From the NCBI RefSeq assembly GCF_988242995.1, contig NZ_OZ547043.1: DNA of 64,000 bases. The stretch is one strand, 5' to 3'. Below the pieces are notes generated by a model. The model ran no database searches. It saw nothing but the letters and a program-made list of their open reading frames with translations, and was not told the origin of the DNA. Positions within the stretch are counted from its first letter, which is position 1. The number at the start of each line of letters is the position of its first letter. Shown here piece after piece: positions 35,625 through 48,751 of the stretch. The translations under genes and the position numbers were made by a program.

Positions 35625-36337
35625 TTGTGCACAGAAAACCCCCAGCTAGGCTGGGGGTTCCGGAAAGCTTTCAGCTTTGAGCCAGTTATTAAAACCCCTT
35701 TTGATTTGTTAAAACACTTTGCGGTCTGGCAACTGCAAGTGTCAAACAAGAAATCAAAAGGGGGTCCCAATGGGGAACGAAAAGAGCTTAGCGCACACCC
35801 GATGGAACTGTAAATATCACATAGTTTTTGCGCCAAAATACCGAAGACAGGTGTTCTACAGAGAGAAGCGTAGAGCAATAGGCAGTATTTTGAGAAAGCT
35901 GTGTGAGTGGAAAAGCGTACGGATTCTGGAAGCTGAATGCTGTGCAGATTATATCCATATGCTTGTGGAGATCCCGCCCAAAATGAGCGTATCCGGCTTT
36001 ATGGGATATCTGAAAGGGAAAAGCAGTCTGATGCTTTACGAGCAGTTTGGTGATTTGAAATTCAAATACAGGAACAGGGAGTTCTGGTGCAGAGGGTACT
36101 ACGTCGATACAGTGGGTAAGAACACGGCGAAGATACAGGATTACATAAAGCACCAGCTTGAAGAGGATAAAATGGGAGAGCAGTTATCGATTCCCTATCC
36201 GGGCAGCCCGTTTACGGGCCGTAAGTAACGAAGTTGGATGCAAATGTCAGATCGTGTGCGCCTGTTAGGGCGCGGCTGGTAAGAGAGCCTTATAGGCGCA
36301 TTTGAAAAACCTCCGGCTATGCCGGAGGATATTTATT
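35625..36337 (+). mobile_element. IS200-type insertion sequence, copy A
   Basis: About 711 bp near-identical to copy B; left-end hairpin CCCCCAGCTAGGCTGGGGG, right-end hairpin CCTCCGGCTATGCCGGAGG; contains tnpA. Confidence 0.9.
35770..36228 (+). CDS. tnpA: IS200/IS605 family Y1 (HUH) transposase TnpA
   Basis: 152 aa MGNEKSLAHTRWNCKYHIVFAPKYRRQVFY with HxH motif CADYIHMLVEIPP. Confidence 0.92.
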   Translation: MGNEKSLAHTRWNCKYHIVFAPKYRRQVFYREKRRAIGSILRKLCEWKSVRILEAECCADYIHMLVEIPPKMSVSGFMGYLKGKSSLMLYEQFGDLKFKYRNREFWCRGYYVDTVGKNTAKIQDYIKHQLEEDKMGEQLSIPYPGSPFTGRK

Positions 36338-42810: not shown

Positions 42811-42843
42811 CTACTAGGGGGGATAACAATAAAATAAAGCCTC

Positions 42844-43884
42844 CTAGGAGGCTTTGATTATATTAAGCAAATGTTTTCCAATCGTTTCAGACATCTTCGG
42901 AGGGACCGCATTTCCTATTTGACGAGCCCGAGATTGCAAAGAACCAATAAATTTATAATCCAAAGGAAATGTTTGTAGACACGCTGCTTCACGAACCGAT
43001 ATTGCTCGATTTTGTGTTGGATGTCCAAAACGTCCATTTGAATAGCTAATACAACGAGTTGTTAGTCCGCTGGCTGGTTTGTCCCAACTCAAACGTCCAT
43101 ATACGTCTGTATGCCCTTTATGGTTACGATGGCATTCTAAAATCAATTCATCTGGCCAAAATTCTCGACTTCCACCTTCAGGAGTGCATTTTATTCTACG
43201 TAAATTAAGCTCTGATAAGCGTGCAGCTTCATGATCAGGAATACTATTATGCTTTTCTCCTGCTTCTATCTTCGGTAAATTAGCGATCCAGTCCTTTACT
43301 GTTGAATAGGGAGTATTTCCAACCCCATGTGTAGGAGAAGGCAATGCGACATAAAAATCCTTGGATGCAATGAGCACTAATCTTTCTCGCGTCTGTGGTA
43401 CACCGTACCACGCAGCTGGCATTACTTTATAATCTACACTATATCCCTTTGATGAAAGCATTTCTAAAAACATCATGAATGTTCCTTCATTTTTGTTAAA
43501 CTTTTGCATTCCTGGCACGTTTTCAACAAAAATAAAATCAGGCATATAATGCTCTACAAAGCGACTGAATTCCTTTAATAGATCTAATCGTGGATCATCA
43601 TTTTTCTTATTTGAGTTTTGCTTAGAGTACGGTTGACAAGGCGCACATCCTGAAAAAAGAATGTAATCATTACGATGTTTTTTTACTAACTTGTTTATGG
43701 CATTGTTGTCGATTAACCTAATGTCCGAGTTAATAAAAGCAGCCTGCGGGAAATTTGCACGAAATGAACTGGCTGCATCAACGTCGAAATCGAGGCCAAA
43801 AACAATATCCATTCCAGCTTGATGGAAACCTTGGCTGGTTCCACCACAACCGGAAAAGAAGTCAAACACTTTGATTTTTTTCAT
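42844..43884 (-). CDS. DNA (cytosine-5)-methyltransferase
   Basis: 346 aa from MKKIKVFDFFSGCGG; motif I FSGCGG, motif IV GCAPCQPYS, motif VI ENVPGM, motif VIII QTRERLVLIA, motif X GNAVPP; RBS AGAGGGA. Confidence 0.9.
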   Translation of the reverse strand: MKKIKVFDFFSGCGGTSQGFHQAGMDIVFGLDFDVDAASSFRANFPQAAFINSDIRLIDNNAINKLVKKHRNDYILFSGCAPCQPYSKQNSNKKNDDPRLDLLKEFSRFVEHYMPDFIFVENVPGMQKFNKNEGTFMMFLEMLSSKGYSVDYKVMPAAWYGVPQTRERLVLIASKDFYVALPSPTHGVGNTPYSTVKDWIANLPKIEAGEKHNSIPDHEAARLSELNLRRIKCTPEGGSREFWPDELILECHRNHKGHTDVYGRLSWDKPASGLTTRCISYSNGRFGHPTQNRAISVREAACLQTFPLDYKFIGSLQSRARQIGNAVPPKMSETIGKHLLNIIKAS

Positions 43885-43907
43885 TTTTCCCTCTGCATCC
43901 AGAATCA

Positions 43908-45737
43908 CTACCTAATGATACCACGGTCAAGAGCCTGAGTAATTATTTTTCTTATTTTTATAAATTCAGGCAATTCATTTTTAAGTCTTGCGGTCATCAT
44001 TTGTTGGAGGCAAAAAATTTCCTCTGCATTTACTTCTTCTTTATCATACAGGTGTTGCGCTAATAATCTTATTTGATTCTTATACAGTTCTGGATCATTA
44101 GAACTCCAGGTCTGTGAATCAATTATTTCTTTTTCACTTGGCGTAATTGCCTTTTCAATGAGTAATTGTTCGGGAGTATCAAATGGTAAATACTTCACTT
44201 TATTGAATGCATACTCAAGCACTTGCCTTTTGAGTCTATTAGATTCTTGTTCATTTTTTTTGCCATTACTACCACTGGCATTGATAATTAACTCGCAACC
44301 ATAATATTTGCACATTGTATTAACTAAATCAGCATCAGCAATTTCACTAATTCTTACTGGTTTTATTTTTTTGTTTTTATCACCATCAAGTAAAAACAAA
44401 ATATCATTGCGTTCTACCACAGCGTAACTGGGAAGATGCTTGCTTAAAATGGTCTCCGAACCACCTGGTATATAACTTACACTAAATGATAAGCTTAATC
44501 TTTCATCATTTTTAATCGCTTTATCTATAATTGCTTTAGCTAATTTATCTTCTACAATTATTGTTTTCTTGTTAATATCATGCCCTAGCTCTATAAAAGC
44601 TTCATCCGGTGCTATATTTTGAACTATTTTAGCTGTTTCACTCTCTTCATCAAAAACAAATAATTTAATGGCATCTTTGGGAAGAGTGTTCACAATAACA
44701 GGAGAATGGGTTGATATTACCACTTGATGTTTTTTCTGCTCAACAATAGAGTACAGAACATCCATCATCCTTTTTTGTGCACCAGGGTGAAGTGAAACTT
44801 CTGGTTCGTCAAGAAGAATTAATGAATTAGGTTTGGCCGAATAAATATTGAGTATTAGTGAAACTATTGCAAATTCACCACTTCCAGCAAACGCTTCTGT
44901 ATAGTTCAACTTATCAGTTGAAAGTAAAGCGGTTCCTCCTCTGGTTCCAAATAACCGATGCTCAAGAAATTTAATGACTTTATATTTTTTCCCTAATATA
45001 AATGAGACGTGCTCAACTAGTTCTGGCGCCAAGGTTATATTTTTAACAATGGTTTCCGCCCCCCAGAGTCTTAAATTACTTAGCTTTTCATCAAAAGCTT
45101 TCTTTATATATTTAGATTTGCTTCTGATATAGTCTTGCTTTGTAATTAATACACCACTCTTCTTCTTTCTTAATTTAAAATCAGAGTGATACATACATCT
45201 ATCAAATGCACTTATTTCCGATCTGAAATCTAGGAAAACCAATCCCTTCTTGATTTTTTTCCATCTGGTTGCATTACTATTAGCACCCAGATCATCCGAA
45301 ATACTCTCCATGTTATCACCAACAGATGGTCGACTTGTTTCCCAATAATCGATTGTTTTCTTGGTAGCATTGATACGTGCTTGGAGTATTTCAACTAAAC
45401 GGCCATCAGCATTTTTATATCCATATATATATCTAGGTTTAAGAGAACTGCCATCAGCAAGTTTTAGGTCAGGAAACTCATCTGTTTCAGTTGTGAACCA
45501 ATAACGAGTTATATTTTTACCATGTGGGCAACCAAATAGCGCTTTGATAACAGAACTTTTATTAGTTCCATTTTTTCCTACTAAAGCCGTTATAGGGAAC
45601 TGAAAATCGATCCTTGCATTCTGCTCTATATTTTTAAAGTATGGAAAACGGATATGTTGTATGAATGGTTCAAATTCACCGTTTTTTAACGCGCACTGGA
45701 GTGTTCGAATTTTGCTCTTGTATGCGGAAGTGCTCAT
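43908..45737 (-). CDS. ABC-type ATPase fused to C-terminal Toprim-like domain (OLD-family-like nuclease candidate)
   Basis: 609 aa; Walker A LVGKNGTNKSS, Walker B/D-loop SLILLDEPEVSLHP, H-loop VISTHSPVI; C-terminal IIVEDKLAKA glutamate and FLLDGDKN DxD suggest Toprim; 23 bp upstream of MTase on same strand. Confidence 0.7.
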   Translation of the reverse strand: MSTSAYKSKIRTLQCALKNGEFEPFIQHIRFPYFKNIEQNARIDFQFPITALVGKNGTNKSSVIKALFGCPHGKNITRYWFTTETDEFPDLKLADGSSLKPRYIYGYKNADGRLVEILQARINATKKTIDYWETSRPSVGDNMESISDDLGANSNATRWKKIKKGLVFLDFRSEISAFDRCMYHSDFKLRKKKSGVLITKQDYIRSKSKYIKKAFDEKLSNLRLWGAETIVKNITLAPELVEHVSFILGKKYKVIKFLEHRLFGTRGGTALLSTDKLNYTEAFAGSGEFAIVSLILNIYSAKPNSLILLDEPEVSLHPGAQKRMMDVLYSIVEQKKHQVVISTHSPVIVNTLPKDAIKLFVFDEESETAKIVQNIAPDEAFIELGHDINKKTIIVEDKLAKAIIDKAIKNDERLSLSFSVSYIPGGSETILSKHLPSYAVVERNDILFLLDGDKNKKIKPVRISEIADADLVNTMCKYYGCELIINASGSNGKKNEQESNRLKRQVLEYAFNKVKYLPFDTPEQLLIEKAITPSEKEIIDSQTWSSNDPELYKNQIRLLAQHLYDKEEVNAEEIFCLQQMMTARLKNELPEFIKIRKIITQALDRGIIR

Positions 45738-45885
45738 TGTTTACTAAAGTCCATAATAGGCTATTAACAGGTTGAGGATGACATGATAACGATTTTTAAT
45801 GCAGATAAAAGAGGTTTGTTGGTTAGCACACAACAGAAAAAGTGACCTTACCGCTTGAACGAAAGGTAAGGGTAAGTAGGCTGTG

Positions 45886-46038
45886 ATGCAGCAAAAGACG
45901 ATGTTAATCGCCCTGATTGTCATCTGTATTACCGTCGTTGTGATGGCACTGGTAACAAGGAAAGACTTCTGCGAGGTACAAATCCGAACCGGTCAGACGG
46001 AGGTCGCTGTCTTCACAGCTTACGAACCTGAGGAGTGA
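45886..46038 (+). CDS. Hok/Gef-family type I toxin
   Basis: 50 aa MQQKTMLIALIVICITVVVMALVTRKDFCEVQIRTGQTEVAVFTAYEPEE; single TM then conserved C-terminal tail; 3' hairpin GCGAGGGAGAAATCCCTCGC at 46047-46066; below ORF-track size cutoff. Confidence 0.8.
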   Translation: MQQKTMLIALIVICITVVVMALVTRKDFCEVQIRTGQTEVAVFTAYEPEE

Positions 46039-46503
46039 GAGACCAGGCGAGGGAGAAATCCCTCGCCACCTCTGATGAGTCAGGCATCCTCAACGCACCC
46101 GCACTTAACCAACTTTGGCGGGTATATTTTATCTGTGAATATTTTTATAAAAATAATGCCCACGCACAGCATAAAACAAAAAGTATTACAGATAAAAAAG
46201 GAACGTAATGTGCAGATTTGTTGTTTTCCATATTTACTCACCTTAATATGATTAACCCTAATAGGGTTGTTATTTCAGCGGTTTTCAAATGAGATATTAT
46301 GGTGATCTGGCAGATTTGCATAACATTAAAATTTAATTTGTTTAACCGCTTTTAATAATAAGCGTTGTTTGTATCCCAGCAATCTGTTGTTTGGTTTTTA
46401 TTCCATTAAGGTGGGGCTTTACACTGGAGCCAGTTTATTTATACTTCATACGTCAGCCTGAACAACTGGCATCTGCTGCGCTGCGCCATCGAGAGATTAA
46501 GAA

Positions 46504-47103
46504 ATGGCGCATATACAACTGGTCAAACAAACCTCTTCCGGATTACTTCTCCCGGCGACGCCGGAGAGTTGTGATTTTCTGCATCAAATCAAAATAGGCG
46601 AGTGGATACACGCAGACTTTAAGCGTGTGCGTAACTACGCATTCCACAAGCGTTTTTTCAAACTCCTGCAACTGGGATTCGATTACTGGACTCCGGTCGG
46701 TGGGGCGATCACGCCTCGCGAACGAGAACAGCTGTCTGGTTTCGTTGATTACCTGTGCGAATCAGTTGGTCGGGAACACACGCCAGCCCTGAGTGATGCC
46801 GCAGAGCAATATCTGAATACAGTTGCGACACGCAGAACCCGGGATACGGCATTGCTAAAGTCGTTTGAGGCTTTTCGCGAGTGGGTAACCATTCAGGCTG
46901 GATTTTACACCGAACATTTTTATCCGGACGGTAGCCGCGGGCGTCGGGCAAAATCTATCGCTTTTGCGAATATGGACGAAACCGAGTTTCAGCAGGTTTA
47001 TAAATCTGTTCTGAATGTGCTGTGGAACTGGATTCTGTTCCGTAAATTTTCCTCTCCGGAACAAGTCGAAAATGTGGCCGCGCAGCTGCTGGAGTTTGCG
47101 TAA
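46504..47103 (+). CDS. Phage nin-region protein, DUF1367 (YbcN-like)
   Basis: 199 aa; position between replication genes and Q. Confidence 0.6.
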   Translation: MAHIQLVKQTSSGLLLPATPESCDFLHQIKIGEWIHADFKRVRNYAFHKRFFKLLQLGFDYWTPVGGAITPREREQLSGFVDYLCESVGREHTPALSDAAEQYLNTVATRRTRDTALLKSFEAFREWVTIQAGFYTEHFYPDGSRGRRAKSIAFANMDETEFQQVYKSVLNVLWNWILFRKFSSPEQVENVAAQLLEFA

Positions 47104-48038: not shown

Positions 48039-48751
48039 TTGTGCACAGAAAACCCCCAGCTAGGCTGGGGGTTCCGGAAAGCTTTCAGCTTTGAGCCAGT
48101 TATTAAAACCCCTTTTGATTTGTTAAAACACTTTGCGGTCTGGCAACTGCAAGTGTCAAACAAGAAATCAAAAGGGGGTCCCAATGGGGAACGAAAAGAG
48201 CTTAGCGCACACCCGATGGAACTGTAAATATCACATAGTTTTTGCGCCAAAATACCGAAGACAGGTGTTCTACAGAGAGAAGCGTAGAGCAATAGGCAGT
48301 ATTTTGAGAAAGCTGTGTGAGTGGAAAAGCGTACGGATTCTGGAAGCTGAATGCTGTGCAGATTATATCCATATGCTTGTGGAGATCCCGCCCAAAATGA
48401 GCGTATCCGGCTTTATGGGATATCTGAAAGGGAAAAGCAGTCTGATGCTTTACGAGCAGTTTGGTGATTTGAAATTCAAATACAGGAACAGGGAGTTCTG
48501 GTGCAGAGGGTACTACGTCGATACAGTGGGTAAGAACACGGCGAAGATACAGGATTACATAAAGCACCAGCTTGAAGAGGATAAAATGGGAGAGCAGTTA
48601 TCGATTCCCTATCCGGGCAGCCCGTTTACGGGCCGTAAGTAACGAAGTTGGATGCAAATGTCAGATCGTGTGCGCCTGTTAGGGCGCGGCTGGTAAGAGA
48701 GCCTTATAGGCGCATTTGAAAAACCTCCGGCTATGCCGGAGGATATTTATT
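48039..48751 (+). mobile_element. IS200-type insertion sequence, copy B
   Basis: Near-identical to copy A, same orientation, same terminal hairpins. Confidence 0.9.
48184..48642 (+). CDS. tnpA: IS200/IS605 family Y1 transposase TnpA
   Basis: Identical 152 aa product to copy A. Confidence 0.92.
   Translation: MGNEKSLAHTRWNCKYHIVFAPKYRRQVFYREKRRAIGSILRKLCEWKSVRILEAECCADYIHMLVEIPPKMSVSGFMGYLKGKSSLMLYEQFGDLKFKYRNREFWCRGYYVDTVGKNTAKIQDYIKHQLEEDKMGEQLSIPYPGSPFTGRK

Follow-up and report, generated by a model that had tools for sequence, protein, structure and literature searches.

Organization of the locus

The locus considered here lies within a stretch of 64,000 nucleotides of contig NZ_OZ547043.1 (RefSeq assembly GCF_988242995.1), hereafter the window, which is a segment of an E. 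coli chromosome carrying a Rac-type lambdoid prophage and in which Rfam matches to RalA, FnrS, and McaS are found. ATCC 8739 and approximately 25 other complete genomes are 99.9-100% identical to the window over the stretches compared (45700-46520 and 45400-46520). The annotated gene order in ATCC 8739 begins on the left with recE, racC, kilR, ydaT, ydaV, DUF1627, and DUF977, and continues to the right of DUF977 with two genes on the opposite strand, for a cytosine methyltransferase and an 'ATP-dependent nuclease', followed by a 'Hok/Gef family protein', DUF1367, DUF1364, and DUF1133. The orientation of hok is that of the replication and nin/Q genes. The features of the locus are as follows.

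42835-42856, no strand assigned: hairpin, apparently a bidirectional terminator, on the side of the cassette away from hok, with the DUF977 gene to one side and the end of the methyltransferase gene to the other
42844-43884, minus strand: DNA cytosine-5 methyltransferase gene, forming a two-gene unit with the ATPase gene
43908-45737, minus strand: gene for a 609-residue ABC-type ATPase (AAA_21/AAA_15), OLD/HEC-04/PtuA/AriA-like by Pfam and PADLOC, 'ATP-dependent nuclease' in RefSeq
45738-45845, no strand assigned: replacement leader, without homology to canonical hok leaders and shared with the divergent ATPase gene as its upstream region
45771-45780, plus strand: GTTGAGGATG, a perfect 10-nt complement of the fbi box, overlapping the Shine-Dalgarno sequence (SD) GAGGA (45774-45778) of the upstream open reading frame
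45783-45845, plus strand: hypothetical upstream open reading frame (uORF) of 20 codons (MITIFNADKRGLLVSTQQKK), not a mok homologue, with a stop codon abutting the hok SD hairpin
45846-45882, plus strand: remnant of the canonical hok leader, 70-80% identical to the 042 and A17 leaders, holding the SD hairpin, a weakened SD, and an in-frame TAG
45883-46038, plus strand: hok coding sequence, hokD-type allele, 51 codons from GTG, with an alternative ATG at 45886 (50 residues)
46046-46067, plus strand: conserved post-stop stem-loop of hok mRNAs, a perfect 9-bp stem (46046-46054/46059-46067) with a GAAA loop
46084-46102, plus strand: fbi (fold-back inhibitory) box, GCATCCTCAACGCACCCGC, placed by alignment and nearly invariant in hokD-, hokW-, and hokC-type loci
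46097-46133, plus strand: weak terminator-like stem ACCCGC/GCGGGT (46097-46102/46118-46123) followed by a T-rich tail, from sequence reading and the MFE structure

The AT-rich intergenic stretch of roughly 760 bp reported in the preliminary description measures 766 bp (45738-46503) and has a GC content of 0.40 against 0.47 for the window. This AT-richness is confined to the flanks, GC content being 0.37 in the leader and 0.34 in the spacer that separates hok from the DUF1367 gene (46126-46503), as against 0.49 in the hok coding sequence and 0.58 in the 3' untranslated region (3'UTR). The spacer itself is 378 bp long, is 97-100% identical in sibling prophages, and holds on its plus strand three terminator-like hairpins (46253-46269, 46347-46364, and 46415-46431) as well as two promoter-like sites (46225-46252 and 46418-46445). 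From its position, and by analogy with lambda, we take it to be a possible counterpart of the tR2 terminator region, preceding the nin genes.

Elsewhere in the window, an exact duplication of 713 bp was observed (35625-36337 and 48039-48751), one copy following the recE-like gene and the other the Q-like DUF1133 gene, and each copy holding an Rfam STnc490 match (144.6 bits) together with a 169-codon open reading frame that starts with TTG. Downstream of the DUF1133 gene, ATCC 8739 carries tRNA-Thr and tRNA-Gly genes, while an ARAGORN search of the whole window detected no tRNA.

The hok coding sequence and the 3' half of the mRNA

Initial inspection of the sequence had identified a Hok/Gef open reading frame of 50 residues at 45886..46038, and this frame exists. 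RefSeq and the list of open reading frames both begin it at the in-frame GTG at 45883, yielding a 51-residue product with the translation (V)MQQKTMLIALIVICITVVVMALVTRKDFCEVQIRTGQTEVAVFTAYEPEE; the GTG aligns with the canonical hokD ATG, and the next ATG stands in for the Lys-2 codon. Similarity to the Hok family is clear. Specifically, Pfam HOK_GEF (PF01848) matches residues 7-47 over model positions 2-42 of 42 (E = 1.1e-21), and 44 of 51 residues (86%) are identical to those of HokD. NCBIfam Hok models return an E-value of 2e-11 yet score under their curated cutoffs (NF007279, 43.4 against 73 bits; NF007290, 42 against 89 bits), despite which RefSeq names the product 'Hok/Gef family protein' (WP_032158962.1). 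Judged by its sequence, this is a real Hok-family membrane toxin gene, the existence of which, given the RefSeq annotation, is not new.

The hok reading frame is intact in all ten alleles that carry the replacement leader described below, among which seven peptide variants occur. The dN/dS ratio relative to hokD is approximately 0.4-0.5, a value that rests on only about 12 substitutions, too few to separate relaxed from purifying selection, such that the gene appears neither clearly neutral nor clearly constrained. The encoded peptide is predicted to be toxin-competent. Of 45 diverse Hok homologues examined in a recent survey, 42 were toxic on expression (10.1101/2025.08.07.668861).

Two further features of the coding sequence were observed. 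Firstly, the SD and start region of hok (45871-45886) is complementary to the 3' end of the coding sequence (46013-46028) at 13 of 16 positions, compared with approximately 9 of 16 in canonical hokD by hand count; three changes specific to the window, the ATG to GTG change among them, all raise this pairing, the modelled probability of which is low (0.06-0.15). Secondly, the Tyr-47 codon sits in UACG (46020-46023), the target context of TadA. In the hokC, hokD, and hokE mRNAs, A-to-I editing (TadA) is reported to turn the equivalent Tyr codon into one for Cys (10.1101/2025.08.07.668861).

From approximately 45857 to 46125, the sequence can be aligned with loci of the hokD, hokW, and hokC types, with matches in 5,424 of the 5,426 complete E. 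coli genomes and in 102 phage records. The hairpin previously noted at 46047-46066, and likened to the 3' fold-back of hok mRNAs, is real and homologous to the post-stop hairpins of other hok loci (over ten loci, 96% of cells are paired and two compensatory pairs occur), but it is not itself the fold-back element, which is the fbi box at 46084-46102. In canonical loci the fbi box is complementary to the 5' sequence GCGGGTGCTTGAGG, termed tac, and pairing of the 5' and 3' ends through tac and fbi closes the hok mRNA until 3' processing (PMC9841398). The stem at 46097-46133 falls under the threshold of the terminator scan. With coding sequence, post-stop hairpin, fbi box, and terminator-like stem all kept, the 3' half is, by alignment, that of a normal hok mRNA.

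Loss of the canonical control region

In contrast to the 3' half, the region upstream of hok departs from its relatives. Relative to the prophages of E. coli 042 and A17, the window is 97-100% identical over the spacer after hok, approximately 90% identical over the hok coding sequence, and 70-80% identical over the last 30 or so nucleotides before the start codon; to the left of approximately 45846-45857 identity is approximately 50%, which is the level of unrelated sequence and places the homology breakpoint at approximately 45846-45857. Similarly, homology to hokD loci begins at window position 45857-45874 (query position 118-135).

Consistent with such a breakpoint, RF01794, the Rfam model of the 157-nt hok leader and Sok region, has no match in 45400-46600, whether at the gathering threshold or at E<=10 with permissive filters. 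The same model scores 101-122 bits in ten canonical loci (hokC, hokW of 933W, PPompW, a plasmid locus, 042, A17, A2, F9792, strain 135, and MEI003), six of which are sibling prophages with the same downstream genes, and low sensitivity is thereby ruled out as the cause of the null result. The K-12 hokD locus is likewise without an RF01794 match, and relBE is present there in place of the canonical leader. The possibility that the leader is a canonical one altered by divergence or internal deletion was also considered and rejected, as local alignment with the 042 leader is no better than with shuffled sequence (108 of 500 shuffles reach the score).

The individual elements expected of a canonical leader fare no better. 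The preliminary description anticipated a Sok-like antisense RNA and an overlapping mok frame in 45780..45900, neither of which is borne out. When the boxes of the Sok promoter are aligned to the window, the -35 element TTGCCT has become TTACCT and the -10 element TAACCT is lost. In hokC- and hokW-type loci, mok extends hok in frame at its N-terminus; no plus-strand open reading frame overlaps the hok start in the window, and an extension of the mok type is closed in all ten alleles by TAG at 45877-45879 (CAG in canonical loci) and by TGA at 45856-45858. The canonical tac sequence is missing from the window locus as well. To judge from these comparisons, everything upstream of approximately -30, namely the hok promoter, tac, ucb, the mok start, the Sok target, and sok with its own promoter, is replaced with unrelated sequence. 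With leader, sok, and mok lost, the locus has no recognisable antitoxin and no mok coupling, and the complete type I addiction module first proposed is not supported. A general caution for annotation follows: the presence of a Hok open reading frame is not enough to call a toxin-antitoxin module, the antitoxin half being demonstrably absent in this case.

Expression signals upstream of hok

A consensus promoter scan of the leader returned no site on either strand, although such scans can miss real promoters. Scoring by position weight matrix (PWM) gives 12.8 for the hok promoter (TTGGCG-17-TAAAAT) and 10.3 for the Sok promoter (TTGCCT-17-TAACCT) of 042, which served as controls; the best plus-strand score upstream of hok in the window is 8.7, a level at which approximately one site is expected by chance, and the best minus-strand score in the leader is 6.3, so that the search for an antisense promoter gave no support to a Sok-like transcript. 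The ATPase operon, divergent from hok, must nonetheless be served by a minus-strand promoter lying to the right of 45737, within the leader or past it.

Signals for translation of hok are likewise altered. The SD is weakened from AAGGAG to AAGGGT (TAAGGG at 45867-45872), and a hairpin formed by CCTTACC and GGTAAGG (45846-45852/45865-45871) is predicted to cover it with a probability of 0.89, the SD being unpaired with a modelled probability of 0.15. Models of the accessibility of the ribosome binding site are similar for the window, canonical 042, and K-12 hokD, in all of which the site is mostly paired, and do not discriminate between them.

The neighboring cassette and the cargo slot

The preliminary description placed a defence-like cassette beside hok, and this observation holds: the cassette consists of a C5-methyltransferase and an OLD/HEC-04-like ABC ATPase. 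The best PADLOC matches of the ATPase are HEC-04, ATPase-Toprim, AriA, and PtuA, and the protein has no Pfam Toprim match. Experiments support HEC-04 as a defence protein of the ATPase-TOPRIM kind (10.1101/2024.01.29.577857). The pair is conserved in one Pantoea genome and in two IMG/VR contigs, with identities of 63-69% for the ATPase and 72-74% for the methyltransferase, and hok was found near these cassette relatives in neither the Pantoea genome nor the two viral contigs. As the PADLOC matches are partial, the pair may represent an undescribed methyltransferase-linked ATPase system. At its far end, the perfect palindromic hairpin of 8-9 bp at 42835-42856 has T-runs on both strands and resembles a terminator that would act in both directions and close off the cassette.

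The stretch between the DUF977 gene and hok carries different cargo in every Rac-type sibling prophage checked, and other genes lie directly upstream of hok in K-12 Qin and PPompW, as listed below.

Window (slot 42811-45882): Dcm and ATPase pair
042: QueH
A17: a hypothetical gene and a BstA-like KilA-N protein
Strain 135: an Old-family nuclease (PADLOC Old, E = 3e-73)
A2: a two-gene set with no database matches (no PADLOC match)
F9792 and MEI003: a two-gene set unrelated to that of A2, with no database matches (no PADLOC match)
K-12 Qin: relBE directly upstream of hokD
PPompW: a Paa/AdfO adhesin gene directly upstream of hok

The six siblings that share the DUF1367 context keep the full hok leader. 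Since the cargo varies while hok is constant, hok forms the conserved right border of a cargo slot, and its adjacency to the cassette in the window thus reflects the architecture of a hotspot and not a functional pairing. This reading agrees with a survey in preprint form, according to which prophages are enriched in hok whereas the neighbourhoods of defence systems are not (10.1101/2025.08.07.668861). Together with the cassette relatives that lack hok and the siblings that keep hok beside unrelated cargo, the survey result speaks against the stabilised defence island that had been suggested for this locus. As a right-edge anchor in Rac/Qin-type lambdoid prophages, hok(/sok) could serve in the mining of prophage-borne defence candidates.

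The sequence that replaces the canonical leader is rare and is linked to the cassette. In 31 of the 5,426 complete E. coli genomes a 125-nt stretch of it is present, as a single copy that invariably separates the ATPase gene from hok and is accompanied by the ATPase and Dcm cassette, and no annotated feature underlies it in any of those 31 genomes. No match was found in 72,556 plasmid records or 50,697 phage records, nor was a 24-nt exact word from the leader found among GTDB species representatives. In IMG/VR the leader recovers only near-identical copies and one unrelated contig; the latter (L035, IMGVR_UViG_3300021225_000313), a viral contig that is otherwise unrelated, shares an exact stretch of 23 nt corresponding to 45769-45791, which is taken as chance. 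Whether the leader could be native to the ATPase gene was addressed by comparison with the upstream regions of ATPase relatives at 64-69% identity, which gave a weak result: a score of 21 for L019, against 16.9±2.4 for shuffled sequence (34 of 500 shuffles reach it; p ~0.07), and nothing for L020, and the region upstream of the Pantoea ATPase gene is visibly unrelated to the leader.

Ten distinct alleles were assembled from E. coli genomes and IMG/VR. Polymorphic events among them number one in 138 nt at the 5' end of the ATPase gene and five in 145 nt of leader, compared with 17 in 156 nt of the hok coding sequence and 18 in 87 nt of the 3'UTR, and the alleles are mosaic across hok and the 3'UTR, with window-type and hokD-type states mixed. 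The concentration of polymorphism in these two parts implies that recombination junctions fall inside hok. Such a pattern is what a single, recently spread haplotype of cassette and leader would leave on recombining into resident prophages with crossovers inside hok.

Interpretation and alternatives

Taken together, these data make it likely, in our judgement, that the window carries a silent orphan toxin gene of the hokD type, comparable to K-12 hokD, and not a working addiction module. The toxin reading frame and the entire 3' half of the hok mRNA are retained, and the upstream part has been exchanged for sequence that travels with the methyltransferase and ABC-ATPase defence-like cassette. 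In the lysogen, hok is expected to be silent on four counts: no promoter of canonical strength serves it, a terminator and 2.9 kb of oppositely oriented genes shield it from the early operon, its SD is weak and its start codon GTG, and that SD is held in a local hairpin. The gene probably persists because hok provides the conserved homology, on the right-hand side, for a slot at which Rac/Qin-type lambdoid prophages exchange cargo, and would not be there to stabilise the cassette. The interpretation offered in the preliminary description is partly supported. Several points weigh against a silent orphan, namely the reading frame that is intact in ten of ten alleles, the dN/dS of approximately 0.4-0.5, the complement of the fbi box (with a chance of approximately 0.7-1.5%), and a uORF that ends exactly at the SD hairpin.

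A role at induction is one alternative, and an unlikely one. Here, a promoterless hok would be read by antiterminated read-through from the early-right operon when the prophage is induced, and its product would aid membrane damage and phage release in the manner of hokW-sokW of Sp5. The co-orientation of hok with the replication and nin/Q genes would permit this, the toxicity on expression of most Hok homologues cited above is in keeping with it, and a precedent exists in Sp5, where HokW is up on mitomycin C treatment and deletion of hokW-sokW halves phage release (PMC8621323). However, the early genes are separated from hok by the bidirectional terminator at 42835-42856 and 2.9 kb of convergent genes, and the ribosome binding site that read-through would reach is weak and structured.

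Rather improbable, too, is a working hok switch of non-canonical design, which takes its cue from the leader itself. The transcript would begin at approximately 45765-45774, such that 46085-46094 in the fbi box masks the SD of the uORF; 3' trimming would then free that SD, a ribosome ending at 45845 would melt the hok SD hairpin, and antisense transcription from the promoter of the ATPase operon would repress the whole, tying toxin release to the state of the cassette. The complement at 45771-45780 has a chance of approximately 1%: of 5000 dinucleotide shuffles of the leader, 33 match it, as do 1.5% of other 119-nt chunks taken from the window. In models of the full-length RNA, closure of 45771-45780 on the fbi box has a pairing probability of 1.00 and the uORF SD is unpaired at 0.00, rising to 0.31-0.75 in 3'-shortened models; when a ribosome footprint is placed over the abutting uORF stop in the models, accessibility of the hok SD rises from 0.15 to 0.41-0.67. 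Additionally, the uORF, like hok, is open in all ten alleles, and the ATPase gene needs a minus-strand promoter to the right of 45737.

Against such a switch, no convincing promoter was found on either strand, nor any placed to include the 5' arm; a candidate -10 element, TATTAA (45762-45767), is destroyed in two alleles by a 3-nt deletion, and the best minus-strand candidate would start at approximately 45776 and barely overlap the hok transcript. An open reading frame of 20 codons is unremarkable in itself. The complementarity, moreover, was found post hoc, and diverged cassette relatives occur without hok. Across the alleles, no variation occurs in the 5' arm. In the 3' arm one allele has C replaced with T at 46094, a substitution that would keep a G-U wobble with G45771, and no compensatory change is seen.

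What can be said from the models is that the complement of the fbi box and the uORF look like a mimic, arrived at without homology, of the logic of canonical hok regulation. It is very doubtful that the mimicry extends to a fully re-invented control region, in which 45771-45780 would close the mRNA on the old fbi box and hide the uORF SD, termination of the uORF at 45845 would unmask the hok SD, and antisense RNA from the promoter of the defence operon would take the place of Sok. If true, release of the toxin would be tied to transcription of the defence cassette, forming a 'guard' that links a type I toxin to an OLD-like/methyltransferase system. Finally, a canonical hok/sok/mok module stabilising the adjacent cassette, as first proposed, deserves almost no credence: the locus does have the Hok peptide and the 3' mRNA elements and adjoins a defence-like cassette, but RF01794 is absent against ten controls above 100 bits, there is no mok frame, the Sok boxes are degraded, and relatives of the cassette occur without hok.

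Comparison with known systems

The hok/sok (parB) locus of plasmid R1 belongs to the same toxin family, and the general logic of hok mRNA, with 5'/3' end pairing through tac and fbi, is described in PMC9841398. It differs in having Sok, mok, ucb/dcb, and proven post-segregational killing; no Sok, mok, or ucb/dcb is detectable in the window.

The canonical hokW-sokW locus (933W/Sp5) and the hokD-type loci of 042, A17, A2, F9792, 135, and MEI003 share with the window the coding sequence (87-92% nucleotide identity), the post-stop hairpin, the fbi box, and the position in the prophage; in 042 and A17, the two siblings aligned, this likeness extends through the spacer from hok to the DUF1367 gene, at the 97-100% identity given above. 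These canonical prophage loci, unlike the window, have the full 157-nt leader (RF01794, 101-120 bits), the hok promoter, the tac sequence, an in-frame mok, and the Sok promoter with its TTGCCT and TAACCT boxes separated by 17 nt.

The orphan state is paralleled by hokD (relF) of the Qin prophage of K-12, which resembles the window locus in its peptide (86% identical), in a homologous 3'UTR that includes the fbi box, and in holding the same place in a lambdoid prophage, with replication genes on one side and the downstream late-control genes on the other. The hokD locus is likewise devoid of the canonical leader, and its homology sets in only shortly before the SD. Pedersen and Gerdes are said to have described hokD, in 1999, as lacking both sok and mok. 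The two loci differ in their upstream DNA, which in K-12 is relBE on the same strand as hokD and in the window is the divergent ATPase and Dcm cassette. Compared with K-12 hokD, the window allele starts with GTG, its SD is weaker, and TAG lies in frame two codons upstream; it has also gained a new 10-nt complement of the fbi box together with an upstream open reading frame of 20 codons.
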